NCBI GenBank assembly: GCA_023432985.1
Contig: JAEZEQ010000052.1
Location: forward strand, 318 to 64,317
Length of the DNA: 64,000 nt
Direction of reading: 5' to 3'
Source of the DNA: Bacteroidota bacterium
Lineage (GTDB): Bacteria; Bacteroidota; Bacteroidia; CAIKAF01
The notes beneath the pieces are model-generated. The model ran no database searches and was not told the DNA's origin. It worked only from the letters and a program-made list of their open reading frames with translations. The translations under genes and the position numbers were made by a program. Below are positions 7,501 through 63,361 of the stretch, one piece after another; position 1 is the stretch's first letter; the number at the start of each line of letters is the position of its first letter.

Positions 7501-8882
7501 CTAAAGATGGGAAGATAGACCACAAGGATAATTAACTGACCAAATATGGCGGCTTTCAACATTTTTGAGGCAGTGTCTACGGTAAGTTTTTTTGGATCTA
7601 TTTCCTCGCCTTTATGCTGCATAAAATAGAAGAGTATAGATTCAACTATAATCACCGCCCCGTCAATTAATAGTCCGAAATCTAATGCCCCAAGACTCAT
7701 TAAATTTCCCGATACACCAAATAAATGCATCATGGAAATGGCAAAGAGCATGGCCAACGGAATAATGGAAGCCACAAGCAATGCCGCACGCATATTTCCC
7801 AAAAACAGGAATAAGACCACAAAGACAATAAGCGCACCTTCCGCAAGATTAACTTTTACGGTAGAAATGGCATTATCTACCATTTTGGTTCGATCTAAAA
7901 AGGGTTCTATTACAGCCCCTTCGGGAAGACTGGCGTTTATTTCGGCTATACTCTTTTTTACATCTTTGATGATAGCCGAAGAATTCTCGCCTTTTAACAT
8001 CATTACTACAGCTCCGCTTACATCGCAATCGCCGTTATAACAAAGTGCACCATTGGGAATGGCATGTCCGTCTTTGATTTGTGCCACATCTTTAAGCCGC
8101 ACTATATGTCCGTCCGCTCCCGATTTTATTACCAGATTTTCTATTTCTTTTTTACTTTCAAGTAAACCTTCTGAACGAATATAACTTAAGGTTTTTCCTT
8201 TTTCTATATAAGCTCCGCCTGCATTGGAATTGTTTTTCAGAAGGCATTCTTCTATATCGTCAACGCCTATAGAAAATGCTTTCATTTTTTCGGGAAGCAT
8301 TTCTACCTCGTATTGTTTCAATAAGCCTCCGAAACTACTTACATCGGCCACGCCTTTCACGTTCAATAGGCGGCGACGCACAATCCAATCCTGCATACTT
8401 CGCAATTCTACCGCAGAGTATTTACCCGGATTTGCTGAATCGTTTCGGATTACATATTGATAAATTTCGCCCAATCCGCTCGTTATCGGTCCCAATTGCG
8501 GAGTCCCCAATGAAGGATCTATACTGCCCTGTAAAAGCAATAATCGTTCGCTTATTTGCTGTCTGGCCCAGTATATATCTGTACCTTCTTCAAAAACGAC
8601 GGTGACTACGGATAGGCCGAATCGGGAAAAACTACGTATTTGCTTTAGTCGGGGCGTATTGGCACAGGCTTGCTCCACCGGAAAAGTAATAAGCCTTTCC
8701 ACATCTGTTGCCCCTAAGGAAGGCGATACGGTTAATATTTGAACCTGATCGTCGGTGATATCGGGAATGGCATCTATGGGCAGACGGGTTAAGGAATATA
8801 TACCCCATGCAGATAAGGCCAGTACGCCTATTAATACAATTAATCTGTTGTGAACTGAAAAGTTCGCTATTTTTTGAATCAT
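4587..8882 (-). CDS. CusA/CzcA-family heavy-metal RND pump fused in frame to a TolC-like outer-membrane factor
   Basis: 1431 aa. Residues 1-1023 have the CzcA-type N-terminus (LPIDAIPDITDDQVQILT) and the 12-TM RND layout. Residues 1024-1431 start with a complete signal peptide (MKSRFKKNATLVLFLAIFLPGYAQ). They continue as a coiled-coil/beta OMF-like sequence. No stop codon separates the two parts. Confidence 0.8.
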   Translation of the reverse strand: MIQKIANFSVHNRLIVLIGVLALSAWGIYSLTRLPIDAIPDITDDQVQILTVSPSLGATDVERLITFPVEQACANTPRLKQIRSFSRFGLSVVTVVFEEGTDIYWARQQISERLLLLQGSIDPSLGTPQLGPITSGLGEIYQYVIRNDSANPGKYSAVELRSMQDWIVRRRLLNVKGVADVSSFGGLLKQYEVEMLPEKMKAFSIGVDDIEECLLKNNSNAGGAYIEKGKTLSYIRSEGLLESKKEIENLVIKSGADGHIVRLKDVAQIKDGHAIPNGALCYNGDCDVSGAVVMMLKGENSSAIIKDVKKSIAEINASLPEGAVIEPFLDRTKMVDNAISTVKVNLAEGALIVFVVLFLFLGNMRAALLVASIIPLAMLFAISMMHLFGVSGNLMSLGALDFGLLIDGAVIIVESILFYFMQHKGEEIDPKKLTVDTASKMLKAAIFGQLIILVVYLPIFSLQGIEGKMFRPMAQTVSFALIGAFILSLTYVPMMSAWILKIPKGNKMNFADKWEHFLQGVYKKFLLRVIHKPRLILASALLLFIPAVWIGSGMGAEFIPTLEEGDFAVETRLIPGSNLESSKLHSQKITQILLQFPEVEKIVSKIGSSEIPTDPMPPEASDIIVVLKDKKEWKTATTFPALADSMNKALSLLVEADFSFQFPVQMRFNELLTGAKQDVVIKIFGENLDSLAQLGARIAKIVDETPGTYETYVERIDGMPQTVVKFDPEAMSRYGVKIADANKMLSAAFAGLTVGKIYEGERNYDVSIRLPDAMRTSIKQIEQLPIPGVNGNQIPLYLLAEVKEEMGYNQIQRENAQRRFIVGFNVKDRDVQSVVSDIQQRSKSLSLPEGYFIRYGGSFENLQEASSRLAIAFPVALLLIFFLLYIAFGSVKQSLLVYSAIPLSSIGGILALWLRDMPFSISAGIGFIALFGVAVLNGVVLVSEINRLKKQEISDHVEAVVQACVNRIRPVLLTASVAALGFIPMALSNGSGAEVQRPLATVVIGGLFTSTLLTLIVLPVLFVMKSRFKKNATLVLFLAIFLPGYAQKEISIEESIQILQSKSQWAAYSADMQKALRQMPLSSLEIPETEFQFNIGHINSAAFDNGFAVQQSIKFPAYYAQTKARAKSEMQLKSVELQQEGLQYEKWLNHSYYLHVWLKEQMEFAAEMDSIWKMALKVEKQRVDKGESDKLTLHVLQMEAALIETKHAMWKQEMENNLYLFNALLDTSETYIPKSSSFPTLNKQSQSFDLNIQQNTLRTALLKNQYRTAQWNLAPSLLFGYSNMTIIGYQNITGTEVYYDGRQRFGTWQVGLGIPLFQMGEIGEKKKLKWMYSAIKKKEIWDNQLLNRQKNNRLNVLTQYQIRYTQLFETLETESDSMLQLIFIQREKGEIGFNEWFLYFQQYVKMKEEMLQKKWEWMQAIIEYNYIQKEK
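5742..5813 (-). other. Internal signal-peptide-like segment at the RND/OMF junction
   Basis: Codons 1024-1047 encode M-KSRFKK (n-region), ATLVLFLAIFL (h-region) and PGYA|Q (AXA-like cleavage site). The Met codon is at 5813-5811, in frame with czcA. Confidence 0.6.
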
Positions 8883-8890
8883 ACATCATG

Positions 8891-8929
8891 ATTTAAATTA
8901 CAATAAAAAAAACTGCTTGTAATTTAAAT
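8891..8929. repeat. Perfect 13-bp inverted repeat between the small leader ORF and the RND pump gene
   Basis: atttaaattacaa (8891-8903) and ttgtaatttaaat (8917-8929) are exact reverse complements separated by 13 nt. The right arm covers the stop codon of the 125-aa ORF. Confidence 0.7.
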
Positions 8930-9301: not shown

Positions 9302-9307
9302 GAACTA

Positions 9308-9315
9308 CAAAGGTA
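9308..9315 (-). promoter_or_regulatory. Candidate -7 box (TACCTTTG on the minus strand) for the efflux operon
   Basis: Plus-strand CAAAGGTA matches the reverse complement of TAnnTTTG. It lies only 6 nt from the ATG at 9301, which implies a very short or absent leader. Confidence 0.35.
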
Positions 9316-9429
9316 TATTATTTTAAATTACACCTTATAATTCCTATGTTAAATTTATTATTTACTACACTTTTAGGTAAAATATAGACTTAATTTTAGG
9401 AGAAGATATTTTTTTGTCGTATCTTTATT

Positions 9430-9437
9430 TAACTTTG
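9430..9437 (+). promoter_or_regulatory. Candidate -7 box (TAACTTTG) for the large SBBP/T9SS protein gene
   Basis: Exact TAnnTTTG 18 nt upstream of the ATG at 9456. It lies inside the TTG-extended ORF-track model, which argues for the 9456 start. Confidence 0.45.
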
Positions 9438-9455
9438 GTTAACAAATTATTGGCT

Positions 9456-12400
9456 ATGCGCATTTTTCCTATAGTTTTTTTCCTGCTTTCGTTCACCCCC
9501 GCCTATATTTGGTCTCATTCTGGTCAATCTTTTCCATATATTCAGAATAAAGGACAATGGAGTTCGAATATTTTGTATAAATCGGATTTGGGAGGTGGCT
9601 CTATGTGGATAGAGGAGGGCGGATTAACTTATGCGTTTTTTGATCAATCCAAGCTCAAAGCTTTACACGACGGACTGGATAAATTTCCGCATCTTTCCCA
9701 AGATGGGTGGATTAAAGCTCATGCGCTCAAAATGAAATTCGAAGGTGCTGAACAAAATATTTCATATAGCGCAAGTTCAGCCGGACCGAATTATTATAAT
9801 TATTTTATCGGAGATAAATCGAATTGGGCTTCGGAGGTATATAGCTATGCATCTCTACGCGGAAAAAATCTGTATCCGGGCATTGATATAGTCTATAAAG
9901 CAGACGAGGGTTTTCTGAAATACGAATTTGAAGTAGCCCCGGGAGCTAATCCCGATTTGATTCGTATGCGCTATAATGGAGCCAATTCCATGCGGATTGA
10001 TCCGGCAGGGAATTTGATTTTGGATTTGGGTGTTACAACTATGACCGAGAAAAAACCCTATGTTTTTCAAATTATAGGTCAAGATACCATAGAAATCGGA
10101 TCTTCTTTTGTTTTAGACGGAAATGAACTTCGTTTTGCCATTGATGCCTATAATACAGAGCTTCCCCTTATCATAGATCCCATTCTGATTTTTAGTACCT
10201 ATTCCGGATCTACTGCCGATAATTTTGGTTTCACCGCAACATACGACAGTAAAGGATATTTATATTCGGGAGGAAATGTGTTTGGACTGGGTTATCCGAC
10301 AACAACAGGAGCCTATCAGGTTTTATACGGAGGCGGAAATATAGATGTGGCCATTACCAAATACGATGTAAGCGGCACTTTTCTCATTTATAGTACCTAT
10401 TTAGGCGGAAATGGATCGGAAATTCCCCATAGTTTGGTGGTGAATAATTATGATGAATTGTTTATTTACGGGACTACCGGATCTGCTAATTTTCCCGTTA
10501 CAGCCAATGCTTTCGATCAGACATTTAATGGAGGAACCAGCGTAAATGGCGTGGGAATGGGATTTGTATACCCATCGGGATGCGATATTTTTATTTCTCG
10601 CCTGAATGTTAGCGGAACGGCATTATTGGCTTCTACTTTTTTGGGTGGAACGGGTAATGACGGACTGAATCTGGCGGGTGGATTGAAACATAATTATGCC
10701 GATGAATCTCGAGGCGAAATCGATATAGATAAACTCAATTATATTTACCTGGCCAGCACCACTTCGTCTACGAATTTTCCGGGTGTAGCCGGCGCTTTTC
10801 AATCGACTTATGGCGGAGGATCGCAGGATGGTATCGTAGTGAAAATGGATAATAACCTTACCTCACTTCTCTTTGCATCTTATATGGGAGGCTCGGGTGC
10901 AGATGCCATTTATTCCTTGTCCATGGGCAGCAGTACAGGCTCTATCATCGTAGCCGGGGGCACCAACTCGCCCAATTTCCCCACAAACGGTCCGGCTTAC
11001 AATACACCCAATGGTGGTATAGACGGATTCGTAGCGAGAATTTCTTCTAACGGAGCCGTACTCAATAGATCTATTTTATTCGGAACTGCTCAGTATGACC
11101 AGATTTATTTTGTGGAAGTAGACCGAAATGATCATGTCTATGTGTTGGGACAAACAGACCATGCAGCAGGCTATTATTATCAAAATGCTATATATGGAAT
11201 CCCAAATGGAGGCCAGTTTATTACTAAGTTTAAACCCGGTTTAGATAGCCTGGAATGGAGTACTTCTTTCGGAAATGGAAACGGATTTCCGGATATTTCT
11301 CCCTCTGCATTTTTGGTCGATGTATGTAATAAAATTTATATTTCGGGTTGGGGTGGAATAGTCAATGGTTCGCTTATTCCCGGAAGTACGGTCACCGGAT
11401 TGGATATTACACCGAACGCATTTCAACCCAATACAACCGGTAGCGATTTTTATTTAATGGTAATGGAAGATAATGCTTCTGCTTTAACCTATTCTACATT
11501 TTTTGGAGGAAATACCTCTGCCGAACACGTAGACGGAGGTACCAGCCGATTTAACCGTAAAGGAGAAATCTACCAAAGTGTATGCGCCGGATGTGGAGCC
11601 AATAGCGATTTTCCAATTGCCCCAAGTAATGCATGGAGTCCGACCAATAATTCCTTCAATTGCAATGTGGGCGTGTTTAAGTTTAAGTTCGACTTCCCCA
11701 TGACGGTTGCGGATTTTGATATTCCCCCGGCAGCCTGTGCCCCTGTGAATATGACCATGACCAATGAAAGTGAAGGCGCACTGAGTTATCTTTGGGTGGT
11801 AAGCGACGGACAAACGTCTACGGATGTGAATCCGAATTTTCAATTTAATAATGGAGGGGTTTACGAAGTTACGCTGTACGCAATGAACTCAAGCGGTATA
11901 ACCTGCAACCCCATCGATAGCATTAGTAAACAAATTGTAGTTTTAGGAAATTCGGGACAACTTTTACCCGATATGGAAAGCTGCGATGATGTGCCCTTCG
12001 AAATAGGATTGCCACCAACAGGTGTTGCCGGTGTAACCTATCAGTGGATCCCTTCAAGCGGATTATCCGATCCAACCACTTCTAATCCTATTTTTAATCC
12101 CTCTGCCGGAACGCAGAATTATCAGGTGATTATTTCGAACGGTATGTGCTCCGATACGCTCACTCAATCGGTTACCGTTAGCCCGCTGCTTAGTTTTACC
12201 TTTGCCGATACGCTGGTTTGCAAGGGAGCTGTCGTGAATCTTGGAAACGCAAATATGCCGGGAAATTATACCTATAATTGGACTCCTGCGGGCGGACTAT
12301 CGAACCCCAACTCTGCAAATCCATCCCTAAGTGTTACTCAAAATGAAACCTATCAATTGATCTATTCATATTTGAATTGCAGCGATACCGCATTTAGAAT

Positions 12401-13409
12401 TGTAACGGTTCTTGATGAGCAATCCTTTGATTTGCCCGATACCGCAATTTGTGCCGGAGATAGTATTCATATCAACGAAATCCCATTTTTTCCCAATCTG
12501 ACCTATACCTGGTCACCCTCTGCTTTGGTCAGTAACCCCAATATCCATAATCCAAGCATATGGACAGACGAAAATCAGATTTTTACCTTGATTATTGATA
12601 ATGGTGCCTGCCTCGATACGGTCTACAAACAGGTAAATGTCATCACTATTGCCGGAAGTTTAGGACCCGATATCACCAAATGTAAAGAAGACAGTGTGCA
12701 AATCGGATTTGCCCCTCAACCCGGATTTTCATACCAATGGTTCCCCTCAAGTTATCTCAATAATGATACCCTGTCGAACCCCATTACATTTACACCCAAC
12801 TCCATGCAATATGTATTGCAAACCTCCCTCAATCAAAGCTCTTGTTCGGCCTTTGATACTATAGGTATTGAGGTGATTTCTTTGGGTATTCCGCCCATAG
12901 GTTTTTACGAATATGCCGGATGTGGAGGAGTGGTGTATGAACCTGATTTAATGGGAAATCCCAATTACGATTACCACTGGGTTGTTATGCCGGGCGGACA
13001 AGATTATGACGGACCTAATCCGGGTATTACCGTGCCTTTTAAAGATACCATTACCTTGTCTTTAACGGTGAGTGACGGACTTTGTAGTGAGACAGTAAAC
13101 ATAGAAAAAGAAGTAGGCGGATTTGGCGATTATTATCAAGCCTCTATGATGCCCAATGTCTTTACGCCCAACGAAGATGGAATGAATGAATGTTTTGGTC
13201 CCGACGGTTTAGAAGAAGGATGTTACCGACTTTATGTTTATAATAGATGGGGCGTATTGTATTTTGATTCAGAAAAATCAGGACAGGGGTGCTGGAATGG
13301 AAGAGGCATGAATAAAGCCCCGGACGTAGCCTCAGAAGGGGTGTATTATTGGGTCTTGATAATTGGACTCGACGAATACCATGGTCATGTTTCTCTCTTT
13401 AAAAATTAA
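9456..13409 (+). CDS. Large secreted SBBP/beta-propeller repeat protein with T9SS type B (gliding-motility-associated) C-terminal domain
   Basis: Start at 9456 gives signal peptide MRIFPIVFFLLSFTPAYIWS. The N-terminal IQNKGQW domain plus repeated Y..YLGG.G.D/E blocks are typical of SBBP repeats. There are four ~77-aa tandem modules. The C-terminus (VFTPNEDGMNECF ... YNRWGVLYF ... WNGRG ... GVYYWV) is typical of the TIGR04131-type sorting domain. Confidence 0.8.
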   Translation: MRIFPIVFFLLSFTPAYIWSHSGQSFPYIQNKGQWSSNILYKSDLGGGSMWIEEGGLTYAFFDQSKLKALHDGLDKFPHLSQDGWIKAHALKMKFEGAEQNISYSASSAGPNYYNYFIGDKSNWASEVYSYASLRGKNLYPGIDIVYKADEGFLKYEFEVAPGANPDLIRMRYNGANSMRIDPAGNLILDLGVTTMTEKKPYVFQIIGQDTIEIGSSFVLDGNELRFAIDAYNTELPLIIDPILIFSTYSGSTADNFGFTATYDSKGYLYSGGNVFGLGYPTTTGAYQVLYGGGNIDVAITKYDVSGTFLIYSTYLGGNGSEIPHSLVVNNYDELFIYGTTGSANFPVTANAFDQTFNGGTSVNGVGMGFVYPSGCDIFISRLNVSGTALLASTFLGGTGNDGLNLAGGLKHNYADESRGEIDIDKLNYIYLASTTSSTNFPGVAGAFQSTYGGGSQDGIVVKMDNNLTSLLFASYMGGSGADAIYSLSMGSSTGSIIVAGGTNSPNFPTNGPAYNTPNGGIDGFVARISSNGAVLNRSILFGTAQYDQIYFVEVDRNDHVYVLGQTDHAAGYYYQNAIYGIPNGGQFITKFKPGLDSLEWSTSFGNGNGFPDISPSAFLVDVCNKIYISGWGGIVNGSLIPGSTVTGLDITPNAFQPNTTGSDFYLMVMEDNASALTYSTFFGGNTSAEHVDGGTSRFNRKGEIYQSVCAGCGANSDFPIAPSNAWSPTNNSFNCNVGVFKFKFDFPMTVADFDIPPAACAPVNMTMTNESEGALSYLWVVSDGQTSTDVNPNFQFNNGGVYEVTLYAMNSSGITCNPIDSISKQIVVLGNSGQLLPDMESCDDVPFEIGLPPTGVAGVTYQWIPSSGLSDPTTSNPIFNPSAGTQNYQVIISNGMCSDTLTQSVTVSPLLSFTFADTLVCKGAVVNLGNANMPGNYTYNWTPAGGLSNPNSANPSLSVTQNETYQLIYSYLNCSDTAFRIVTVLDEQSFDLPDTAICAGDSIHINEIPFFPNLTYTWSPSALVSNPNIHNPSIWTDENQIFTLIIDNGACLDTVYKQVNVITIAGSLGPDITKCKEDSVQIGFAPQPGFSYQWFPSSYLNNDTLSNPITFTPNSMQYVLQTSLNQSSCSAFDTIGIEVISLGIPPIGFYEYAGCGGVVYEPDLMGNPNYDYHWVVMPGGQDYDGPNPGITVPFKDTITLSLTVSDGLCSETVNIEKEVGGFGDYYQASMMPNVFTPNEDGMNECFGPDGLEEGCYRLYVYNRWGVLYFDSEKSGQGCWNGRGMNKAPDVASEGVYYWVLIIGLDEYHGHVSLFKN
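11950..12890 (+). repeat. Four tandem ~231-nt (about 77-aa) coding repeats inside the SBBP protein
   Basis: Each module has a C-x-G/D start, an aromatic core and a Cys-containing end. The cores are TYQWIPSSGLSDP (~12036), TYNWTPAGGLSNP (~12269), TYTWSPSALVSNP (~12501) and SYQWFPSSYLNND (~12728). The ends are CSDT, CSDT, CLDT and CSAFDT. Confidence 0.75.
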
Positions 13410-31796: not shown

Positions 31797-31797
31797 T

Positions 31798-35764: not shown

Positions 35765-38700
35765 TTAACGCATTAAATACATTTTTCCAAATCCTTTCTT
35801 GAAAAAACTATCGGCAACGGTAGACCGCTTTTCTATGCTCTCACCGTTTATTTCGGTGATTACACGGTAAAAATAAACCCCGGACGCCAGTCGGTTACCA
35901 AACATATCGGTGCCATCCCAGGCATAATCGGTGATATTATCGCCTATATGTATATGCCCCAATTCATCCAACATAATTTCTTTTACTATAACTCCATTTA
36001 TGTTGAATATCTGTATTTTGAAAAAACTCGGAATCTCACTTCCGGTTAACGTAAACACAAATCGGGTAGAGGTACTGAACGGATTCGGATAATTGAATAC
36101 ATGGGTTATGCTGCTTTGCTGTATGACCTGAAAACGTATTTTATAATCGTAGGTCCCATCACCCTGTCCACTGTAATTATTGCTCTTATCCCGACCTCTC
36201 AACAGAAGCTGATATTCCCCGTCGGCCATAGTGAAATCGGGTCTGTACTCTAATCGTGCATTGTTTTTGGAATTCGTTGCCGGGAAAAATTGTATGTCAC
36301 TGCCATGCAAAGCTATGGGATATAAGGTCTGACTGCCCGGATATTTTAAGAATAATTCAAAACTGCTGGTATCGTCTAATAACATGAGCGGATTCTCATC
36401 TTTAAGCTGTATGAGTATATTGGGTCTCGCCGATACAATATCTCCATCCATAATCCGCACCCCATCAAAGGTCACATCCAAAATGGGATTTATACGGTCT
36501 TTATCGGTATAAAATATACGTTCGGCTATATTGTTGAAATGCAATTGCTCTAAAAACCTATCGTTACGATCGAGCGGATTTGCCTCTATTTTCAAACTGT
36601 TTAAATAAGGATAGGCATAGTTGGAAATTTCGAATGTGTCTAATTTCCACTCGTTTACTTGTAAACCTTTGCCTTTTTTATAAAAGTTTTGGGTTTGATT
36701 ATTGGAACTTGAAAATATTTGATGTTTTACTATAAGTGAATCGACCCCATAATCGCCTATATTTTCTATGGGCATAATCCAGCTTATATTCTGCCCCTGG
36801 GTCAGGGTATCGGCGTGGAATACATGGCCTCGGGAGGGATTAAGGGCTATTTCGGGAACCCCCTCATAAAGTATATGCCAAAACCTCAATTGGGCAGGCG
36901 TACGTATGCTGTCGTCGCGGGTGAAAAAACGAAGCTTGACATAAGGATACTGTTGGGCATCTACTATATTGTCCAGGTTGAATACCTCTCCGGGAACCGG
37001 CAATAATTCGGGAATTAATACGGTTTCCTGGTTGCCCGAATAACCGATTAAGGAAACCGAAACACTGTCTAAATTAGGAAATTCATAAGGCTTTTGAAAG
37101 AAACGCAAATAATCCCATCGGCTTGCCGGCCCGATAAGGGGACTGTCCATAGTACCAAATATCCAGTCGTTTTCTAAATCTACAGAAAGACTAATCTGTG
37201 CATTCGGATTTTGTCCCACCACCTCACGCGTACTATTGGGATAGCCTTTACGGGTGAAAAAGATATAGGGCAAATTCGACCCATTGGCCGCTAAATCTTG
37301 AATGGAATCGGCGCCTAAATTTATGAATGCGTTAAGTTCGGTCGGACTAAACACGCTGAAATTTGTCTGAAACATTGTATAGGCTACGATATAGAATCCA
37401 TCGGGAATTAAATTTTCTAATGCATTTCGTAAGTGATTTCTATAGGTTGCATTATTTGGGAAAACAAAATAGCCTTCGCTCCGATTTCTACAGGTAGAGC
37501 ATTGATTGTATTGATTCAAATTCACGCCGGGCGAATTGGGACAGGAGGTAACCCAGGGCTGCAAGGTAATGGGATCTATCACGGCTACATAAATGCCGGG
37601 CGTGGTGGTACATCCTCCGTATTCTACCAAAATCCCATCTAAATCTATCTTACACTCTATAGATTGAGCCGCTGTTGCTCCACCAATGGTGGTAACTTTC
37701 AATTGCTTTCTGTTGGTGATAAAATCAAATTCCCGATTGGGCTTGTCGTATTCTAAATAGGTAAATTGATTGTTCTCGAATTGAGGAAAATCTGCCTGAC
37801 CCCAACCTCTTTTGTTTTGTATGTATTGAAAGGAACTCTTTTTCCATTTTCCGAATTCCATATTTCCTGATGTGTCGACCCCTGTTCTCCAGTAGAAAAC
37901 CGTACTGTCGGCCATATTCAATTGCGGATACCAATGTAAAATTCCGCCGCTTTGTGTAATGACCGTGTCCTTTTTCCACGGACTTGCAAAAAGTGCAGAA
38001 GTGTCTATTTCGAGTTTGTAATTGCGTATGGGGGCAAATAAATCTCCCGTTATCGCTTTTAAATGTGTATTGGCCTTGGGTACTACGGCAAACTCGTAAG
38101 GATAAACCGGAAGTATATCCGAACTGTTGATTTGAATATTTTTGACCACTACATTATTGAATTCGTTCATCTCATCAATAAAATTCCCCGGGTCTACCGT
38201 TATGGTGAAAATATTATTCCCCTGTCCCTTCAATGCATCCACCGGAATGCGTATACGCATACTGTCGGAAAATTGTATAGGAGCCTGAACCAAACTATAA
38301 ATGGCATTGGCAACTCCATCTTTTGGAAAATCGCGTACAATTTCTATACGTATGGAATCGGATATGCTGCGTCCCAAATTCTTTACCACTAAATGTAAAT
38401 CAAAACTGTCTAAATCTGTGCTAATAATTTGCGGACTGTGCTTTACATCCGATTCAAGAATCACCAGATCGGGCTTGGGCCAACTGAGAATTTTTATTGC
38501 CGGATCACCGTGTATGGAAAAGTCTAAATAATTGATTCGATCGAAAAAGCCGGGATTGCTTATGTATAAGTCATTAATACTCTTCTGCAATGCCATGCCT
38601 ATACTTTCTCCATATAAATCACGCGAAATATTTTTATACCAGTTTTTACTGATATGAAAACCGGGTAAAGTCAGACTATAGCCCACTGCACTCATAAAAG

Positions 38701-40783
38701 CTATGGATCCGCGTTGAGGTTCTAAAACGAATTTTTCGGAAATGGTGGCCGAATTTTGGAATAAATCGCCCGAAAGGCAACTATTGGCTATGATGACCGG
38801 ATATTTCCCATTATTATCGTAATCGCCCGGATCTTCTATATTATTGTCGAAACCACTTCCCGATGCATGCCCGAAAAATGTCATAATAGACACACCCTCA
38901 TTTATTAAATATCGTATACTGTCTGAAACAGAAAGAGGATAGGGGGCATTGGAAGATTTTCCGAAAAAATAAGTATATCCAACCATACTCGAATCCTCCC
39001 AATGCGAAGCATAATCGTCAAGAAATGCTTTGAATTGATTTTGTTCGGACTGACTATTTCCGCCCGCAAAATGCATGGCCTTTTTATTCCATTCTGCTAC
39101 TCTGTTCTGTTCGTGCTGCTGCACTTTATATAAATAATTGCGTACATCCTGTCCGTCTCTCGCCGCTAAACGTCCTATTGCCGTATGATGCTGAGGCTGG
39201 ACTCCCGGAAGGTATACATAATGATGGTCGGACGGAGGATAACCCATAGCCGGAATAATGTTCAATGCCGCTGTGGCAGGGTTCAGACGTACTACGTCGG
39301 GATAATAGGATTTGCCTATTAAAAATATATGACGGGGTTTTATTTCCCATTTCTCGCGTGCAAATCGGAAAAAATAATAAATTCCCATAGGATGATTTGT
39401 CATCCCATAGCCAAATTGATCATATAATTCGCGTACATCTAATACAAGAGGCGTATGTCCGGTTAAACTTCTGTAATCGGCATATTCCAAGGCTTCTTGC
39501 CATAGGGCAGAGGCGCTTATAATCAGATAATCGCGGTTGGCATACTGACTGCCTAAATCTCTGAATTTACCCGGCTCAGCTTGTCCCGAAGAACGAACCG
39601 GCTCAATCTGGTTTACTTTAATGGTCGAACTGTCGCTGAATATAAAACATTTTTTTTCGGATATAGATCCGTTAGCCATAACCACTCTATAATTATTGGC
39701 CCCCGTATTTTGTAATAGCATGCGCTTTTGATTCGATAAATCATATATATAAGCGCTTGTTCCATTCGCATTAAATCCGCTTAATTGCAAGGTATATTTA
39801 GACTGAGTCGGATTGTTGGGTATATACATAGTCTGCGCAGTCCTATTGCCCAATTGATACAATTGCGGAATCCATAAATCGGAATACATCAACGCATTTC
39901 GAGTGGAGGGACTGCCCGTAGAGGGACTAAACACGATTTCGTAAACAAAATTGGCCGAAATTAAATCGGCTGCAGGAATAGAAAAAGTATGCTTTAAAAA
40001 TGAAAAATCATAAAATGAAGTGTCTATGGTTGCCGATCCAAAACGAATAAAATGGTTGTGATCGAAACTGAGCGCATTGGAATTGGGATTGGATGCGCCG
40101 GCAGCCCACACCTGCAAACGAGCCGTTGGGCCGCCCGTATAAATATTATTTTTCAATTGGTTGTATTGCCCTGTCCAAGGCTGATTGACAGAACTTGTAC
40201 CCGTATAAATATTTCCTAATCCTTCTCCTTCCTGATACAAACCCTGTTTTTGAAAGCCCTGATAAAAAGCTCCTTCTACATATTGATTTCTATAGCCCTG
40301 CTCAACCCGAGCCGTATAATAGGGCGAAGTTTGATAGGATGAAAAATTAAGGTCAATTTCGGTCTGATAACGCAAGCCCGGCTGAATACCTATAGTAAGA
40401 AAATAATAGGCCGTGTCGCTAAATAAATTAACGGCCGGATTGGCAACCGAACTCGAAAAATATAGAAGTGAATCTATACGTCCGTCGTTTCTTTCTCCAT
40501 AAAATTCAATATAATCGCCCGTATTAAATACCTGATCTGCTTCACCGAAAATAAATAAAGGCACCTGTTTGCCGCGATAAAATAATTGAAAAAATCGGGG
40601 ATCTCCGTTTATGGGAAATCCCGATGCATTTAATACACTATGCGAAATGCGATGCATTCCTTCGCTGTGTACCGGAATTTTATAATAGACTTGATCATAT
40701 CGAATCCATTCGTTTCCAAATGTTTGAGCATAATTGGTCAGCCCGTGAATTAGAAGAAGAAAAATGGGAATTAATTTTTTCAT
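35765..40783 (-). CDS. Gingipain/C25-family sortase-like giant protein with T9SS type A C-terminal domain (PorU-paralogue, PorU2-like)
   Basis: 1672 aa, signal peptide MKKLIPIFLLLIHGLTNYAQ. Central C25 catalytic dyad context: FFGHASGSG (His639, codon 38867-38869) and IANSCLSG (Cys669, codon 38777-38779). CARDB-like segment (LVVKNLGRSISDSIRIEIV). The C-terminal NYPNPFSTSTRFVFTL ... GVYFYRV is a Por secretion tail. ATGA overlap with the upstream barrel gene. Confidence 0.75.
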   Translation of the reverse strand: MKKLIPIFLLLIHGLTNYAQTFGNEWIRYDQVYYKIPVHSEGMHRISHSVLNASGFPINGDPRFFQLFYRGKQVPLFIFGEADQVFNTGDYIEFYGERNDGRIDSLLYFSSSVANPAVNLFSDTAYYFLTIGIQPGLRYQTEIDLNFSSYQTSPYYTARVEQGYRNQYVEGAFYQGFQKQGLYQEGEGLGNIYTGTSSVNQPWTGQYNQLKNNIYTGGPTARLQVWAAGASNPNSNALSFDHNHFIRFGSATIDTSFYDFSFLKHTFSIPAADLISANFVYEIVFSPSTGSPSTRNALMYSDLWIPQLYQLGNRTAQTMYIPNNPTQSKYTLQLSGFNANGTSAYIYDLSNQKRMLLQNTGANNYRVVMANGSISEKKCFIFSDSSTIKVNQIEPVRSSGQAEPGKFRDLGSQYANRDYLIISASALWQEALEYADYRSLTGHTPLVLDVRELYDQFGYGMTNHPMGIYYFFRFAREKWEIKPRHIFLIGKSYYPDVVRLNPATAALNIIPAMGYPPSDHHYVYLPGVQPQHHTAIGRLAARDGQDVRNYLYKVQQHEQNRVAEWNKKAMHFAGGNSQSEQNQFKAFLDDYASHWEDSSMVGYTYFFGKSSNAPYPLSVSDSIRYLINEGVSIMTFFGHASGSGFDNNIEDPGDYDNNGKYPVIIANSCLSGDLFQNSATISEKFVLEPQRGSIAFMSAVGYSLTLPGFHISKNWYKNISRDLYGESIGMALQKSINDLYISNPGFFDRINYLDFSIHGDPAIKILSWPKPDLVILESDVKHSPQIISTDLDSFDLHLVVKNLGRSISDSIRIEIVRDFPKDGVANAIYSLVQAPIQFSDSMRIRIPVDALKGQGNNIFTITVDPGNFIDEMNEFNNVVVKNIQINSSDILPVYPYEFAVVPKANTHLKAITGDLFAPIRNYKLEIDTSALFASPWKKDTVITQSGGILHWYPQLNMADSTVFYWRTGVDTSGNMEFGKWKKSSFQYIQNKRGWGQADFPQFENNQFTYLEYDKPNREFDFITNRKQLKVTTIGGATAAQSIECKIDLDGILVEYGGCTTTPGIYVAVIDPITLQPWVTSCPNSPGVNLNQYNQCSTCRNRSEGYFVFPNNATYRNHLRNALENLIPDGFYIVAYTMFQTNFSVFSPTELNAFINLGADSIQDLAANGSNLPYIFFTRKGYPNSTREVVGQNPNAQISLSVDLENDWIFGTMDSPLIGPASRWDYLRFFQKPYEFPNLDSVSVSLIGYSGNQETVLIPELLPVPGEVFNLDNIVDAQQYPYVKLRFFTRDDSIRTPAQLRFWHILYEGVPEIALNPSRGHVFHADTLTQGQNISWIMPIENIGDYGVDSLIVKHQIFSSSNNQTQNFYKKGKGLQVNEWKLDTFEISNYAYPYLNSLKIEANPLDRNDRFLEQLHFNNIAERIFYTDKDRINPILDVTFDGVRIMDGDIVSARPNILIQLKDENPLMLLDDTSSFELFLKYPGSQTLYPIALHGSDIQFFPATNSKNNARLEYRPDFTMADGEYQLLLRGRDKSNNYSGQGDGTYDYKIRFQVIQQSSITHVFNYPNPFSTSTRFVFTLTGSEIPSFFKIQIFNINGVIVKEIMLDELGHIHIGDNITDYAWDGTDMFGNRLASGVYFYRVITEINGESIEKRSTVADSFFKKGFGKMYLMR
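35768..36010 (-). other. T9SS type A C-terminal sorting domain of the C25-like protein
   Basis: The last ~80 aa contain NYPNPF-x-ST-x-F ... IQIFNINGVIVKEI ... GVYFYRV. This pattern is typical of TIGR04183-type CTDs. Confidence 0.7.
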
Positions 40784-41871
40784 TCTGTTTTCTTTTTACC
40801 CGATTTTATATTAAGCCCCACCCTAAGCGAAAAAACGTGACTAAACAAGAAGGTACTTTGATTTCCCAAAGAAGCCAATGCATAGTCTATATATACGGTT
40901 TTAATTCTGAATCCGGCTCCAATATTGGGTTTAACCAACCAAACCTGTTTGGTTCCATCCCCGTTGCTGCGTTGAAATTGGCCGACTCCACCGCGAATAA
41001 ATACGATATCTTTATAACCCAATTCCATGCCTATACGCAAATCCATACTCATGGGATTTCCGGCTAATACCACATTTCTTTTTCCGTCTGTGGTCAGCAC
41101 TATATCCACGGCAGGACGCATAAAGAAGCGTTCTTTTTTGTCGAACCATTGTTTGTAGGAAACACCGGTGATTATTGAAGGCAAAGCCATTTCGGAACTT
41201 TTACGCAAAATCTCATTTCCGGTGAGCGCAAAAACATCTTCAAAGCTTTCTGTATTGTATGAAAAATGGGTAACAGTGGTCGATATATCTTTAAAAACCA
41301 TAGAGGCTGTCAGATTTTTATAAGCATAGTGTAAGCCGGCATCTATGCCAAAACCCCAACCTTTTCCGAAGGGACCTATATTTCGATGAAGTACTTTTAA
41401 TGTGGCACCTACGCTCAATCCCTTCACCGGCAATTGACGTGCAAAAGCTCCCATAAAAGCATAATCGGCAACCGAAAATTTGGTAATGCGGTCGTAACGA
41501 ACCCGTCCGTCATTGTCAATCAACTCGAGCGTATTGGGAATATTATCTACCCCGCTTCGAATCATCCCAAACGAAATGGCACTTTTTTCACCGGCTTTGA
41601 TGGCAATTGATCCAAAATCATATTTTACCATGCCCCCGAAATGCTCATTATGCATTAAGGCTATGTCGAGCTTGGTTTGAATACGACTTAATGAAGCTGG
41701 ATTCCAATAAATAGCAGTGGCATCATCCGCTAAAGTGGAATAGGCATTACTCATAGCTATGGCACGGGCATTTACACCAATATCCAAATAAGCATTGGTG
41801 TAGGTGTTGGTTTGTCCCAACACAAAAAAGGGGCTAAGTCCTAACAGGGACAAGGTGAATAGAGGTTTCAA
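40780..41871 (-). CDS. PorV/PorQ-family (FadL-like) T9SS outer-membrane beta-barrel protein (PorV2-like)
   Basis: N-terminal motif YLDIGVNARAIAMSNAYSTLADDATAIYWNPASL resembles the PorV/PorQ signature (ARA.AMG.A.. A.D..A..WNPA). Alternating beta-strand pattern throughout. The preferred start is the TTG at 41871, giving MKPLFTLSLLGLSPFFVLGQ, because a -7 box sits at 41891-41898. The ORF-track model starts at the TTG at 41913. Confidence 0.7.
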   Translation of the reverse strand: MKPLFTLSLLGLSPFFVLGQTNTYTNAYLDIGVNARAIAMSNAYSTLADDATAIYWNPASLSRIQTKLDIALMHNEHFGGMVKYDFGSIAIKAGEKSAISFGMIRSGVDNIPNTLELIDNDGRVRYDRITKFSVADYAFMGAFARQLPVKGLSVGATLKVLHRNIGPFGKGWGFGIDAGLHYAYKNLTASMVFKDISTTVTHFSYNTESFEDVFALTGNEILRKSSEMALPSIITGVSYKQWFDKKERFFMRPAVDIVLTTDGKRNVVLAGNPMSMDLRIGMELGYKDIVFIRGGVGQFQRSNGDGTKQVWLVKPNIGAGFRIKTVYIDYALASLGNQSTFLFSHVFSLRVGLNIKSGKKKTE

Positions 41872-41890
41872 ACAGTTTGGTAACTTGCTA

Positions 41891-41898
41891 CAAATGTA
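41891..41898 (-). promoter_or_regulatory. Candidate -7 box (TACATTTG on the minus strand) for the porV2/porU2-like operon
   Basis: Plus-strand CAAATGTA, 19 nt upstream of the TTG at 41871 and inside the longer ORF model. Confidence 0.4.
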
Positions 41899-42009
41899 GG
41901 AAAGAATTACCAAATTACAAGCATAGAAGACTTAATTAATTCCCCCATATGGCTTTGCTTTTTTGATTTTCTTGAAGCTATATCAACCTATATTTTTATC
42001 TTCGCTGCC

Positions 42010-52195: not shown

Positions 52196-54874
52196 GTGAA
52201 AATTAGATCGAAGCTATTTGTTGTAACCCTAACTATTTTATTGACTCAACCATTGTTGCGTGCGCAGACCCCTTGTCTTAGCGGGAATTGCTATACACGC
52301 ATCAACGCTACGGACACAATAATTTGTCAGGGTGAAACCGTAGTGTTGACGGTGGATACCGGCTCGGCTTTATTATTTAATGACTTTAACGGGCAAACCT
52401 TAGGTGCCGGTTGGTCAGTGAATCCGGGTACAGTGGTGAATTATAACAATCCATGTGGTCCGGGGCTCGACGGAACGCCCCACGTATGGTTTGGAAGCGG
52501 AGCGCCTCAGGGCACGCGTTTTTTATCTACTGTTGATTTTAATACCACCGCAGGCGGCTTTTTACAATTCGATTTTAAAATGGCTACTCAAGGCCAGGCC
52601 TCCCCTTGTGAAGGCCCCGACGAAATTGATGAAGGCGTGTCTTTGCAATATTCAAACGACTATGGGGCAACATGGATTGATATTGCCTATTTTTCGCCTA
52701 ATGGTACCATAATGCCGGCAAATCCATGTCCCAATTGCAGCAATGGCGCCTATGTTGCTACCAGTCCTTTTCTGTCCTGGGCAACCTATACTTTCCCATT
52801 TCCGGCCGGCGCGCAAACCTTATGTACGCGTTTCAGATGGACACAACCCTATAATACCTCGGCTACAAACGACCATTGGGGAATAGATAATGTGTTGATT
52901 TATGCCAATATTCCTCCAATCCCCGGCTTTGTGAATACCGCAACCTGGATGGATACCAACCAGCCTATTACCGGTCCGCGTACCGTTACTCCGAATGTTA
53001 CTACTTCTTATATAGCACGCTACGAAACAGGAGGAGGTACATGTTATGACACACTTACCGTTGTGGTAAATCCCAAACCAAATGCCGATTTAAGTGGACC
53101 AAACAATGTTTGTGTAGGGCAATTAAACCAATTTTCTGCAGCGGGAACTACCATTGCCTCCGGATCGATTACCAATTATGTGTTTAAGTTGAATCCGAGT
53201 GGAGCAACGAATTATAGCGGACCTAATAATACACTGAATTATAGTTTTCCCGTTTCTGTACCCACCTTCGATGCTTCGGTTATTGTTACAAGTAACGCCG
53301 GTTGTAAAGATACGGCCTTAATGTCTTTGACCATCTCTCCGGGTGCTGTGCCGAGTTTTACTATGCCCGATACGGTATGTGTCGGTCAAACCGTTCCGCT
53401 CGATGCATCGGCCTCTACTATTGCTGCACCGGGAATTATGGGTGCCTATGTATGGGATTATAATAATGACGGAGTCAGCGACGATTCTTTGTTTGCGAAT
53501 ACAAGTTCTTTTGTCGCCACAACAAGTGGACTTCAAACCGTGAAATTATCTCTTTATAATACGGTCGGATGTTCAGTCACCGTTACTAAAGATATACGCG
53601 TGCTCGATCAACCCATTGCCGATTTCGAAGTGATTCCCGCATGTATAGATGCCGCTTCCGAATTTATCAATAATCAACCTGTAGCAAGTATCGATTATTT
53701 GTATGATTTCGGTGATGGAACAGCTATTCAAAATAATAATAATGCCAATTTTACCCATATTTACGGTCAAGGAACGTATACCGTAACCATGCTTGCCAGT
53801 CAGCATAATATCTGCTTTGATACCGCTACCGTTACCATTGATATTAGTAATGATATAGTGGCCGATTTCAATTTCAATGAACCTTGTAATCTGAATGGAG
53901 TATTTTCTGATTTATCTTCTATCCCTGCCGGTTCCGCCGGAACTGTAGATACCTGGAACTGGAGCTTCGGAGATGGAAATAATTCCACCGATCAAAATCC
54001 TTCGAATGCCTATACCCAAAGTAACGATTATACGGTAACGCTTATCGTTAGCAGCTCCGAAGGTTGTTGGGATACCATTCAAAAAACTGTGCCTAAATAT
54101 GCCTCACCTATAGCCGATTTCACTTTCTCTGAAGTATGTTTTGAAAGCCTTACTAAATTGGCCAATAGTTCGACCATCGCAGCCGGAACTATAACTATCA
54201 GTAATTGGGACTTGGGTGATGGTACGCAAATTTCAAATCCGGATGTCGATTATTCTTACGATGCACCCGGTGCTTATAATGTTACGCTAATCGTAGAAAG
54301 TGACAAAGGATGTAGAGATACGGTTTCTAAAACTGTAAATGTTTGGCCTGTACCTACAGCCGGATTCCTAACTACACCGCCGGGACAAACTACTATGCTC
54401 GAACCTTTGGTCGAAATTACAGATCAATCTACAGGTGCCTCTGTTTATGAGTATTTTATACCTAATCAGGGTACTTATAATACACCTAGCCCATCTGTCG
54501 AATTTTCGAATAGTGGAAATTATACCATATTTCAAACCATCACGAATGAATATGGTTGCGAAGATAAAGCACAAATGGAGTATATCGTAATGTCTGCCTA
54601 TACATTCTATGTTCCCAATTCATTTACACCGAATGAAGGGGATATCATAAATCCCGTTTTCAAAGTGTATTCAAACGGATTAGAAACAATAGATTTTAGA
54701 GTGTTTAACCGTTGGGGCGAAGAAGTATTTACCTCTATGGATCCTAAGTTTATATGGGACGGATATTATAAAGGAAAATTATTGCCCGCCGATGTTTATG
54801 TATACAGATGTATTACAAGAGATGTGGAGGGCAATGAGTATATTTATTCGGGACAAATAAACCTTGTTCGATAA
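52196..54874 (+). CDS. PKD-repeat surface protein with MAM/jelly-roll-like N-domain and T9SS type B C-terminal domain
   Basis: 892 aa, GTG start, signal MKIRSKLFVVTLTILLTQPLLRAQ. N-domain with LQFDFKMA ... SLQYSNDYGATW ... HWGIDNV. Several PKD units (YDFGDGT, WSFGDGN, WDLGDGT). C-terminal FYVPNSFTPNEGD ... FRVFNRWGEEVF ... WDGYYKG ... DVYVY is typical of TIGR04131. Confidence 0.8.
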   Translation: MKIRSKLFVVTLTILLTQPLLRAQTPCLSGNCYTRINATDTIICQGETVVLTVDTGSALLFNDFNGQTLGAGWSVNPGTVVNYNNPCGPGLDGTPHVWFGSGAPQGTRFLSTVDFNTTAGGFLQFDFKMATQGQASPCEGPDEIDEGVSLQYSNDYGATWIDIAYFSPNGTIMPANPCPNCSNGAYVATSPFLSWATYTFPFPAGAQTLCTRFRWTQPYNTSATNDHWGIDNVLIYANIPPIPGFVNTATWMDTNQPITGPRTVTPNVTTSYIARYETGGGTCYDTLTVVVNPKPNADLSGPNNVCVGQLNQFSAAGTTIASGSITNYVFKLNPSGATNYSGPNNTLNYSFPVSVPTFDASVIVTSNAGCKDTALMSLTISPGAVPSFTMPDTVCVGQTVPLDASASTIAAPGIMGAYVWDYNNDGVSDDSLFANTSSFVATTSGLQTVKLSLYNTVGCSVTVTKDIRVLDQPIADFEVIPACIDAASEFINNQPVASIDYLYDFGDGTAIQNNNNANFTHIYGQGTYTVTMLASQHNICFDTATVTIDISNDIVADFNFNEPCNLNGVFSDLSSIPAGSAGTVDTWNWSFGDGNNSTDQNPSNAYTQSNDYTVTLIVSSSEGCWDTIQKTVPKYASPIADFTFSEVCFESLTKLANSSTIAAGTITISNWDLGDGTQISNPDVDYSYDAPGAYNVTLIVESDKGCRDTVSKTVNVWPVPTAGFLTTPPGQTTMLEPLVEITDQSTGASVYEYFIPNQGTYNTPSPSVEFSNSGNYTIFQTITNEYGCEDKAQMEYIVMSAYTFYVPNSFTPNEGDIINPVFKVYSNGLETIDFRVFNRWGEEVFTSMDPKFIWDGYYKGKLLPADVYVYRCITRDVEGNEYIYSGQINLVR

Positions 54875-54884
54875 GTTATTTTAT

Positions 54885-54892
54885 TAGATTTG
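54885..54892 (+). promoter_or_regulatory. Candidate -7 box (TAGATTTG) for the E1 alpha/beta-bio transcription unit
   Basis: Exact TAnnTTTG 20 nt upstream of the ATG at 54913. It overlaps the GTG of the longer ORF model at 54892. Confidence 0.45.
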
Positions 54893-54912
54893 TGCTGTAT
54901 TTATTACAGTAT

Positions 54913-63335: not shown

Positions 63336-63353
63336 AGACAATTTATATGCGAA

Positions 63354-63361
63354 CAAAAATA
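63354..63361 (-). promoter_or_regulatory. Candidate -7 box (TATTTTTG on the minus strand) for the long E1 gene
   Basis: Plus-strand CAAAAATA, 18 nt upstream of the ATG at 63335. It overlaps the TTG of the longer ORF model. Confidence 0.4.

Follow-up and report, generated by a model that had tools for sequence, protein, structure and literature searches.

The 64-kb window (the whole stretch of DNA analysed, 64,000 nucleotides) contains a two-gene operon whose products, a predicted outer-membrane barrel and a C25 cysteine peptidase, are members of the NCBIfam-defined and already named PorV2/PorU2 family. On balance, we favour the view that this operon encodes a surface-docked peptidase that would process other type IX secretion system (T9SS) or surface proteins. 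The two genes and the elements at their boundaries are as follows.

40780..41871, minus strand: porV2, 363 aa with the TTG at 41871 as start (377 aa for the longest ORF, which starts at the TTG at 41913)
35765..40783, minus strand: porU2, PorU-related cysteine peptidase of family C25, 1672 aa (the coordinates include the stop codon)
40780..40783, minus strand: ATGA, overlap of the porV2 stop and the porU2 start (...aca gaA TGA aaa...)
41891..41898, minus strand: TACATTTG, fits the Bacteroidota -7 promoter motif TAnnTTTG, read from the sequence

The coupling of the barrel gene and the 1672-aa ORF through ATGA, proposed in a preliminary description of this DNA, was verified, with both ORFs on the minus strand and the shared tetranucleotide at 40783-40780; because the stop and start codons overlap in this way, porV2 and porU2 form a two-gene operon. 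The 363-aa form of PorV2 begins with MKPLFTLSLLGLSPFFVLGQ, and this is also the recorded form of the window's own protein (P0121); the translation start of porV2 is probably the TTG at 41871. The consensus of the -7 promoter motif in Bacteroidota is TAnnTTTG, and the matching octamer, located 20 nt upstream of the TTG at 41871 in the 138-nt divergent intergenic region, is weakly suggestive of a -7 element of the porV2 promoter. No -33 TTTG was found upstream of porV2 at the canonical spacing from this candidate, and a scan for sigma-70 promoters and terminators yielded nothing above the shuffled expectation (17 sigma-70 sites vs 19.1 expected).

PorU2 matched NF052324 (PorU_rel_Nterm, 'putative type IX secretion system sortase PorU2'), an N-terminal model of 879 positions, with 658.1 bits (E = 2.3e-197; curated cut-off, 450 bits), and residues 5-877 were aligned with model positions 3-879. 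PorV2 matched NF052325 (PorVQ2, 'putative type IX sorting system protein PorV2') over its full length with 398.2 bits (E = 2.7e-119; curated cut-off, 325 bits) and the PorV/PorQ family model NF033709 (PorV_fam) with 100 bits, above the cut-off of 90. Chance is excluded by the HMM E-values of 1e-119 to 1e-197. The three canonical models all failed: PorU2 scored 202.5 bits with the PorU model NF033707 (cut-off, 420), the best stretch of which aligned residues 32-779 with model positions 6-745 of 1095, and PorV2 scored 30.1 bits with the PorV model NF033710 (cut-off, 250), matching by N-terminal residues 40-179 only, and 62.7 bits with the PorQ model NF033711 (cut-off, 220) in a nearly full-length alignment (residues 19-348). 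The HMM comparison suggested in the preliminary description therefore bore out the names PorU2 and PorV2 given there, both proteins being above the curated cut-offs. RefSeq also already uses the name PorU2, for a homologue (P0062), and since the family is named in both NCBIfam and RefSeq, the pair does not represent a new kind of system. In scores, adjacency, order, length, and domain layout, the window pair is the same as the PorU2/PorV2 of NCBIfam, with no substantive difference. A literature search that included PorU/PorV paralogues and the host genera found no description of, or experiment on, the PorU2/PorV2 family. The window PorU2 shares 47% identity with the nearest species representative (L009) and 98% with a Logan contig.

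The AF2 model of PorV2 (pLDDT 80.9) contains 14 strands, and its best structural matches were F. johnsoniae PorV (8GL6_F and 6H3I_F; TM 0.61-0.64), followed by FadL. The PorV2 family profile matched PorV 6H3I_F at E = 4e-5; single-sequence phmmer searches of PorV2 and PorU2 against PDB sequences returned nothing useful, and family profiles were required. A putative Sec signal peptide is present in PorV2 and a lipobox Cys is absent. Judging from the model, PorV2 is a 14-stranded outer-membrane barrel of the PorV/PorQ type, and its earlier identification as a FadL-like barrel of this type is consistent with the NF033709 match and with PorV structures being the closest. The role of a shuttle that had been assigned to it is less favoured: because PorV2 scores nearer to PorQ, which is an anchor, than to PorV, which is a shuttle, and the C-terminal sorting domain (CTD) of PorU2 is the most conserved region of that protein, PorV2 is more likely to be an anchor.

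The domain layout of PorU2 is as follows.

40724..40783, minus strand: putative Sec signal peptide, residues 1-20 (MKKLIPIFLLLIHGLTNYAQ), read from the sequence
39530..40723, minus strand: PorU-type N-terminal domains, residues 21-418 (NF033707 alignment)
38492..39529, minus strand: peptidase C25 catalytic domain, residues 419-764 (PF01364, E = 1.4e-54)
38147..38476, minus strand: CARDB-like Ig domain, residues 770-879 (PF07705, 24.3 bits; cut-off, 22.7)
36113..38146, minus strand: family-specific extension, residues 880-1557 (~680 aa), a chain of Ig-like beta-sandwiches
37229..37606, minus strand: ILEI/FAM3-like alpha/beta domain within the extension, about residues 1060-1185 (boundaries approximate)
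35768..36112, minus strand: T9SS type A-like CTD, residues 1558-1672 (TIGR04183)

In the family consensus, the N-terminus contains a conserved 'AQ' followed by 'YGNEWI', and the N-terminal motif of PorU2 aligns with residues 40-74 of PorU 6ZA2. CARDB (PF07705) is present in 16 of the 22 family members. TIGR04183, the NCBIfam type A sorting domain, matched residues 1565-1647 with 32.9 bits (cut-off, 23), and the CTD aligns with that of PorU 6ZA2 (residues 1021-1141). The C25 domain, the CARDB-like segment, and the type A tail, all of which had been recognized earlier, thus gave Pfam or NCBIfam matches above cut-off. Because the N-terminal 400 aa, CARDB, and the C-terminal Ig domain together with the CTD all align with PorU, PorU2 is assigned by sequence to the PorU lineage, as a paralogue of PorU, and not to the gingipain lineage.

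The AF2 model of the extension (pLDDT 87.5) is almost all beta and consists of Ig-like sandwiches. When the whole extension was searched with Foldseek, PorU 6ZA2 came first and macroglobulin, transglutaminase, and further proteins with Ig arrays after it, all of them generic matches with TM values of 0.1-0.17. The only helices in the model fall in the ILEI/FAM3-like segment. PF15711 (ILEI-like) matched 14 of the 22 family members (best E = 3.3e-12) and is precomputed on many homologues; the window's own domain did not reach E = 0.1 with it. The PorU2 family profile matched FAM3B 2YOP with E = 0.0024. A fused PorZ was also considered for the extension and was rejected, as the PorZ model (NF052228) matches the CTD only and the AF2 model contains no propellers. 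The 400-500 extra residues that had been pointed out are real and typical of the family: full-length PorU2 homologues from six orders measure 1630-1720 aa (the family-typical length is about 1650-1750 aa), and the extension is found at an identical position in 1019 clusters (50% identity, E <= 1e-30). The PorU2 family is thus characterized by this added length, and the architecture is uniform across the phylum.

His639 (in FFGHASG; codon 38867-38869) and Cys669 (in ANSCLSG; codon 38777-38779) are invariant in 53 of 53 PorU2 homologues. The gingipain/C25 dyad previously placed at these residues held when checked, the GH and C of PorU (PDB 6ZA2; chain Cys688, corresponding to Cys690) and the RgpB dyad occupying the same alignment positions. 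His639 and Cys669 also align with the dyad of 14 canonical PorU fragments; these were retrieved for the active-site alignment with a reconstructed fragment of P. gingivalis PorU as the query and are all partial (<=678 aa). With its dyad intact, the C25 domain of PorU2 is supported as catalytically competent. The motifs around the dyad are TFFGH and ANSC/NGC in PorU2, whereas those of canonical PorU are NYxGHG and TATC(D/E)F. Arg722, located 32 residues past the catalytic Cys in PorU, has been proposed to be sortase-like and is absent from gingipains (Gorasia 2015, PMC4560394). An Arg was present in this column in 15 of 15 canonical PorU sequences but in 0 of 16 PorU2 sequences, and no conserved Arg after Cys669 was found in the 53-sequence PorU2 alignment. 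Canonical PorU removes the CTDs of type A cargo and couples the cargo to A-LPS by transpeptidation. PorU2, in which the invariant Arg of canonical PorU is missing, might also transfer the proteins it processes to a glycolipid, as a true sortase would.

Canonical PorU and PorU2 have in common the N-terminal domains, the C25 dyad, the Ig-like domains, a type A CTD, and a partner gene for a PorV-family barrel. PorU2 differs in being ~500 residues longer, with ~680 aa of Ig-like and ILEI-like sequence between CARDB and the last Ig domain, in lacking Arg722, and in having a partner barrel that is not PorV. The pair might nevertheless be the organism's sole PorU/PorV, divergent yet functionally canonical, in which case the '2' would be misleading. 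The absence of canonical porU and porV from the 64-kb window is compatible with this, and a Sphingobacteriales-labelled MAG (L012) has the pair despite a BLAST-based survey in which Sphingobacteriia were reported to lack PorU, PorQ, and PorZ (PMC7323717). However, the scores are far under the canonical cut-offs and separate curated equivalog models fit, the barrel matches PorV in its N-terminal half only, the active-site Arg differs, and annotated fragments of canonical PorU exist in Saprospiraceae, Flavobacteriales, and Chitinophagaceae, higher taxa that also bear PorU2 (a correspondence at the taxon level only). We consider it very unlikely that the pair is the sole PorU/PorV. In the 63 related loci, a canonical porU/porV pair was likewise absent from the 6 kb around the module.

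The arrangement of porV2 followed by porU2, with the same tight junction, was found in ~49 related loci from six orders, including Cytophagales, Bacteroidales, Chitinophagales, Sphingobacteriales, and Flavobacteriales. The gap between the two genes ranges from -65 to +97 nt in these loci and is mostly between -4 and ~+45 nt; in four loci (L002, L030, L044, and L061), porV2 was not found within 6 kb of porU2. The barrel-first order described earlier for the window is typical of PorU2/PorV2 family loci and is the reverse of the canonical porU-porV order; porU precedes porV in model organisms. Complete genomes bearing PorU2 include NZ_CP196710.1 of Pontibacter sp. MBLB2868, CP096135.1, OY782882.1, and OY781043.1. 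The genomic context of the pair is housekeeping, and when the flanking ORFs of 64 loci were clustered, no neighbour was common beyond close relatives with the sole exception of a CDP-alcohol phosphatidyltransferase, found in 5 loci. As porV2 is directly upstream of porU2 in ~49 loci with tight gaps and no other neighbour is conserved, this gene arrangement supports a functional coupling of PorV2 and PorU2, and a machinery-like character of the two proteins is supported because the architecture is uniform in ~1000 clusters and the context is housekeeping.

Several glycan-related genes occur in the surroundings: in the window, the gene divergent from porV2 is GT4-like, L002 contains a TviB/WbpA-like dehydrogenase, and L030 and L061 contain glycosyltransferases. 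These genes had pointed to glycan biosynthesis as a possible link, which was rejected because, apart from the CDP-alcohol phosphatidyltransferase, no neighbour is conserved beyond close relatives in the 64 loci.

The mean pairwise identity was 0.59 for the CTD, 0.50 for the barrel, 0.46 for the last Ig domain, and 0.41 for the catalytic domain. The CTD value compares with 0.30-0.46 in all other PorU2 regions, and 25 CTD positions are invariant; invariant residues include PNPF, WDG, and GKxxxxR. Conservation in the pair thus peaks in the CTD and the barrel, which suggests that the PorU2 CTD is a docking tail retained on PorV2. PorU and PorZ likewise keep their CTDs, through which they bind PorV and PorQ, respectively (PMC10202324). 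The peak conservation of the CTD and the barrel and the absence of Arg722 from PorU2 are details that are new here.

It is also possible, albeit rather unlikely, that PorU2 is an ordinary T9SS cargo, i.e. a surface protease or adhesin serving nutrition or interaction with the environment, with PorV2 as its private anchor and no role in sorting. Gene pairs of a cargo and its private barrel, such as SprB and SprF, are an established T9SS pattern (PMC9143113), and PorU2 recalls surface enzymes and adhesins in its long stalk of Ig-like domains, which includes an ILEI-like domain that may bind glycans. The gingipains RgpB and Kgp share the catalytic fold and dyad with PorU2 (profile E ~1e-9 to 4IEF/1CVR) and, like PorU2, lack the PorU-specific Arg722 (PMC4560394) and possess a T9SS CTD. 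Unlike PorU2, however, gingipains lack both N-terminal domains of the PorU type and a cognate barrel gene, they undergo CTD cleavage, and they are hydrolytic virulence proteases, whereas the N-terminal domains and layout of PorU2 are specific to PorU. The strictly uniform architecture in ~1000 clusters across the phylum also argues against an ordinary cargo, as do the housekeeping context and the lack of a second C25 copy within 6 kb in any Bacteroidota locus, which are unlike the variable, expanded families of nutritional proteases.

Type B CTD proteins in the window are as follows.

52196..54874: type B CTD protein (TIGR04131, 37.4 bits; cut-off, 35)
9414..13409: borderline type B CTD protein (TIGR04131, 32.4 bits; just below the cut-off of 35)

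The mention of two large type B CTD proteins in the preliminary description is only partly correct: the former passes the model, whereas the latter falls just under it. At 4587..8882 lies a CusA/CzcA RND pump, which is no cargo. The presence of one clear and one borderline protein of this type in the window would fit the idea, hinted at in the preliminary description, that type B CTD cargo has PorU2/PorV2 as its dedicated sortase and shuttle. These proteins are 10 and 22 kb away from the porV2-porU2 pair, however, no such neighbour recurs in 63 loci, and PorU2's own tail is type A, making a dedication to type B cargo highly improbable. Type B cargo is reported to be PorU/PorV-independent and to have PorP/SprF-like barrels as anchors, no cleavage step being known (PMC9143113).

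In the reading that we favour, PorU2 would be exported first by Sec and then by the T9SS translocon, and its CTD would not be cleaved but would stay docked on the cognate barrel PorV2, by analogy with the PorU CTD held by PorV and the PorZ CTD held by PorQ. The docked CTD would keep an active cysteine peptidase at the cell surface, where PorU2 would most likely process other T9SS or surface proteins by CTD removal or maturation. A parallel to such docking, the PorQ-PorZ sub-complex within the attachment complex of P. gingivalis, is a case in which a PorV-family barrel holds a T9SS-exported surface protein by its uncleaved CTD (PMC10202324). PorV2 scores higher with the PorQ model than with the PorV model, yet its 62.7 bits compare with a cut-off of 220, and the likeness of PorZ to PorU2 is confined to the CTD; the AF2 model of the extension contains no beta-propeller, and PorZ is no peptidase.

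A further reading, which we regard as decidedly unlikely, is that PorU2 and PorV2 form an autonomous two-protein attachment complex serving a distinct set of CTD proteins, in which the ~680-aa stalk with its ILEI/FAM3-like domain would replace acceptor delivery by PorZ/PorQ. The ILEI/FAM3-like domain would then possibly be glycan-binding, and the chemistry of coupling or release would be unlike that of PorU because PorU2 lacks Arg722. If an autonomous complex of this kind exists, lineages from which PorU, PorQ, and PorZ are reportedly missing might depend on PorU2 alone for CTD processing.

To our knowledge, studies of the attachment step of the T9SS are limited to P. gingivalis and F. johnsoniae (PorU, PorV, PorQ, and PorZ). 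Experimental handles are provided by Cys669, by the lack of Arg722, by the exceptionally conserved CTD, which is a candidate docking element, and by the ILEI-like domain, and PorU2/PorV2 occur in cultured hosts, namely Pontibacter spp. and Brumimicrobium mesophilum. A phylum-wide second PorU-like peptidase with its own barrel would bear on whether cargo classes have different processing enzymes, and the PorU2 module would likewise bear on the fate of CTD proteins in lineages thus far described as devoid of PorU, PorQ, and PorZ and on what determines release as opposed to surface attachment.

Both minus-strand ORFs of the preliminary description are present, and the TGA of the barrel ORF, which ends at 40780, overlaps the ATG of the peptidase gene (ATGA at 40783-40780).

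35765..40783, minus strand: porU2, ORF of 1672 aa
From TTG at 41913, minus strand: porV2, longest ORF, 377 aa
From TTG at 41871, minus strand: porV2, recorded form (P0121), 363 aa

The 363-aa form starting at TTG 41871 carries a plausible signal peptide, MKPLFTLSLLGLSPFFVLGQ, and TACATTTG, similar to the Bacteroidota -7 box, is located 20 nt upstream of this TTG. With a convergent dapF on one side and a divergently transcribed glycosyltransferase-like gene on the other, porV2 and porU2 constitute an isolated two-gene unit. A 1030-aa TPR protein with YbgF/CpoB-like repeats is encoded two genes from porV2 (43975-47067, plus strand); its match to the T9SS lipoprotein PorW/SprE is sub-threshold (69 bits; cut-off, 250), and it is not kept beside the pair in other loci.

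In NCBIfam, the peptidase was assigned to NF052324, 'putative type IX secretion system sortase PorU2' (658 bits; cut-off, 450), and the barrel to NF052325, 'putative type IX sorting system protein PorV2' (398 bits; cut-off, 325), whereas the canonical cut-offs were missed: PorU2 scored only 202 bits on the PorU model NF033707 (cut-off, 420), and the barrel scored 62.7 bits on the PorQ model (cut-off, 220) and 30.1 bits on the PorV model (cut-off, 250). The barrel also passed the PorV/PorQ family model (100 bits; cut-off, 90), and its AlphaFold2 model (pLDDT 80.9) comprises 14 strands and an N-terminal helical segment, with Flavobacterium johnsoniae PorV in the translocon structures 8GL6_F and 6H3I_F as top structural matches (TM 0.61–0.64), followed by FadL. 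A PorU2 homologue (P0062) is named 'putative type IX secretion system sortase PorU2 [Brumimicrobium mesophilum]' in RefSeq. The names PorU2 and PorV2 in the preliminary description were thus correct, and the family had already been defined by curators; our literature search found no paper using these names or describing the family.

The domains of PorU2 are as follows.

Residues 419-764: Peptidase_C25 (Pfam)
Residues 770-879: CARDB (Pfam)
Residues 1565-1647: type A sorting domain (TIGR04183)

The motifs FFGHASG and ANSCLSG translate exactly at His639 and Cys669, and both residues are invariant in an alignment of 53 full-length homologues (27–47% identity to the window's PorU2). The family profile matches Porphyromonas gingivalis PorU (PDB 6ZA2; E 8e-24) and RgpB (4IEF/1CVR; E about 1e-9), placing His639 on the GH of 'NYAGHG' (PorU) and 'NYTGHG' (RgpB) and Cys669 on the Cys of 'TATCDF' (PorU) and 'DVACVNGD' (RgpB), so the two residues proposed as the C25 dyad fall on the dyads of both enzymes. 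Gorasia et al. likened Arg722, 32 residues past the catalytic Cys, to the sortase Arg; it is kept in PorU orthologues and missing from gingipains (PMC4560394). In a shared alignment, Arg occupies this column in all 15 canonical PorU sequences (the 6ZA2 fragment and 14 further fragments, several named 'sortase PorU' in RefSeq) versus none of 16 PorU2 sequences. With the dyad kept and the Arg absent, PorU2 is catalytically intact in active-site surroundings unlike those of PorU, and could be either a transpeptidase or a hydrolase.

The unusual length of the peptidase is real. Full-length homologues are uniformly 1630–1720 aa. When residues 880-1560 were searched exhaustively with phmmer, representatives of 1019 clusters (50% identity) matched at E<=1e-30, with the aligned stretch always lying at ~860–1600 within proteins of 1630–1740 aa; shorter matches appear to be N-terminally truncated fragments. 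AlphaFold2 modelled residues 880-1672 (mean pLDDT 87.5) as consecutive beta-sandwich domains plus a single alpha/beta domain; with this model, Foldseek returned PorU 6ZA2 first and then generic Ig-array proteins. The alpha/beta domain corresponds to ILEI (PF15711), which 14 of 22 family members match (best E 3e-12) and which is sub-threshold in the window's own copy; the family profile also weakly matches FAM3B (E 0.002), and the domain may bind glycans. The last Ig domain and CTD align with the PorU C-terminus in the family profile. Compared with PorU, PorU2 thus carries a ~680-aa insertion, made up of Ig-like and ILEI-like domains, ahead of the last Ig domain and CTD. A PorZ fusion was rejected, because the PorZ model covers the CTD only and the propeller is absent from the AlphaFold2 model.

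A scan of species-representative genomes yielded 63 loci, from Pontibacter (many cultured species among them), Salinivirgaceae, Marinilabiliales, other Bacteroidales, Chitinophagales, Saprospiraceae, Sphingobacteriales and Flavobacteriales; three are from Chloroflexota, with the match limited to PorU2 residues 34-770. The barrel-first order recurs in about 49 loci, where porV2 lies directly upstream of porU2 at gaps of -65 to +97 nt (mostly -4 to +45); porV2 was not found within 6 kb in four loci (L002, L030, L044 and L061). Clustering of flanking ORFs identified no further neighbour kept outside close relatives. A divergent CDP-alcohol phosphatidyltransferase gene just upstream of porV2 (L001:352-1173, L009:3908-4609, L054:4050-4766, and also L012 and L042) is the only neighbour common to distant lineages, in five otherwise non-syntenic loci, and is missing from the window.

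In the window, three successive plus-strand genes (29844-33989), the outer two for SurA/PrsA-type peptidyl-prolyl isomerases (650 and 446 aa) and the middle one (294 aa) without a family match, are followed by a MoxR-type AAA ATPase gene (34006-34965); the surA-moxR-dapF block is retained in a Logan contig carrying a 98%-identical copy (L064). Frameshifts or assembly errors split or truncate porU2 in some MAGs (L044:6001-9135 and 9540-11138; L012:about 5950-8260 and 8262-11045; L003:2576-6391), and the C-terminal piece in L044 matches the C-terminal end of the canonical PorU model with 68.6 bits. The Chloroflexota/Anaerolineae proteins (~930–1100 aa; 21–23% identity) cover the PorU-type N-terminal domains and C25, and two of these loci carry two PorU2-like genes in tandem (L060:5344-8142 and 8160-11480; L063:3922-6720 and about 7852-10032); the third is L062:228-3335. 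This phylum is not known to have a T9SS.

The pair might instead be the organism's only, divergent PorU/PorV. No canonical porU/porV pair is encoded in the 64-kb window, and none of the Bacteroidota loci has a second PorU-like or PorV-like gene within 6 kb. Annotation places canonical 'sortase PorU' fragments in Saprospiraceae, Flavobacteriales and Chitinophagaceae, higher taxa that also carry PorU2 (a co-occurrence at the taxon level only). Since a BLAST survey found Sphingobacteriia to be without PorU, PorQ and PorZ (PMC7323717), PorU2 may be the sole enzyme in some lineages.

Mean pairwise identity by region among 23 diverse PorU2 and 20 PorV2 sequences
CTD: 0.59
PorV2 barrel: 0.50
Last Ig domain: 0.46
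C25 domain: 0.41
All other regions: 0.30–0.35

The slower evolution of the PorU2 tail relative to the catalytic domain fits poorly with a role solely as an export signal that is then cleaved off. PorU and PorZ keep their CTDs, unprocessed, on PorV and PorQ, and cognate PorV-like barrels have been proposed to shield such CTDs (PMC10202324). By analogy, we infer that PorU2 retains its CTD as a domain for docking on PorV2, which would act as an anchor like PorQ rather than as a shuttle. Alternatively, the two proteins may represent a private cargo and its anchor, with no sorting role.

Two large type B CTD proteins had also been described; the first passes TIGR04131 (cut-off, 35) and the second falls just under it.

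52196-54874, plus strand: 892-aa type B CTD protein, 37.4 bits
9414-13409, plus strand: 1331-aa type B CTD protein, 32.4 bits

Neither has a PorP/SprF-like barrel gene of at least 150 aa beside it. A module specific for type B cargo is the least likely reading of the pair, because such cargo is reported to be PorU/PorV-independent (PMC9143113) and the window's type B proteins are 10 and 22 kb away, a linkage seen in no other locus. A 1431-aa CusA/CzcA-type RND pump (4587-8882, minus strand), next to its periplasmic adaptor gene (3478-4590), may have been counted earlier as a large secreted protein; its family model stops at residue 1028, leaving ~400 C-terminal residues unexplained. Single-chain E1 alpha and E1 beta fusions of 2-oxoacid dehydrogenase (672 and 817 aa) are encoded at 54892-56910 (plus strand) and 60903-63356 (minus strand).

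The operon combines the gene for a PorV/PorQ-type barrel with that for a C25 peptidase of the PorU lineage, whose catalytic dyad is intact and which bears a Sec signal and a T9SS tail. The observation of such a pair is confirmed, and family assignment is the level at which its interpretation as a second sorting module is supported. PorU2 would be exported via the T9SS, keep its CTD on PorV2, be displayed at the surface on a long Ig stalk and act on other T9SS or surface proteins. As the pair typifies a curated family of putative sorting proteins, it is not novel in kind, and the PorU2/PorV2 family would be of greater interest as an experimental target than the copy in this window.
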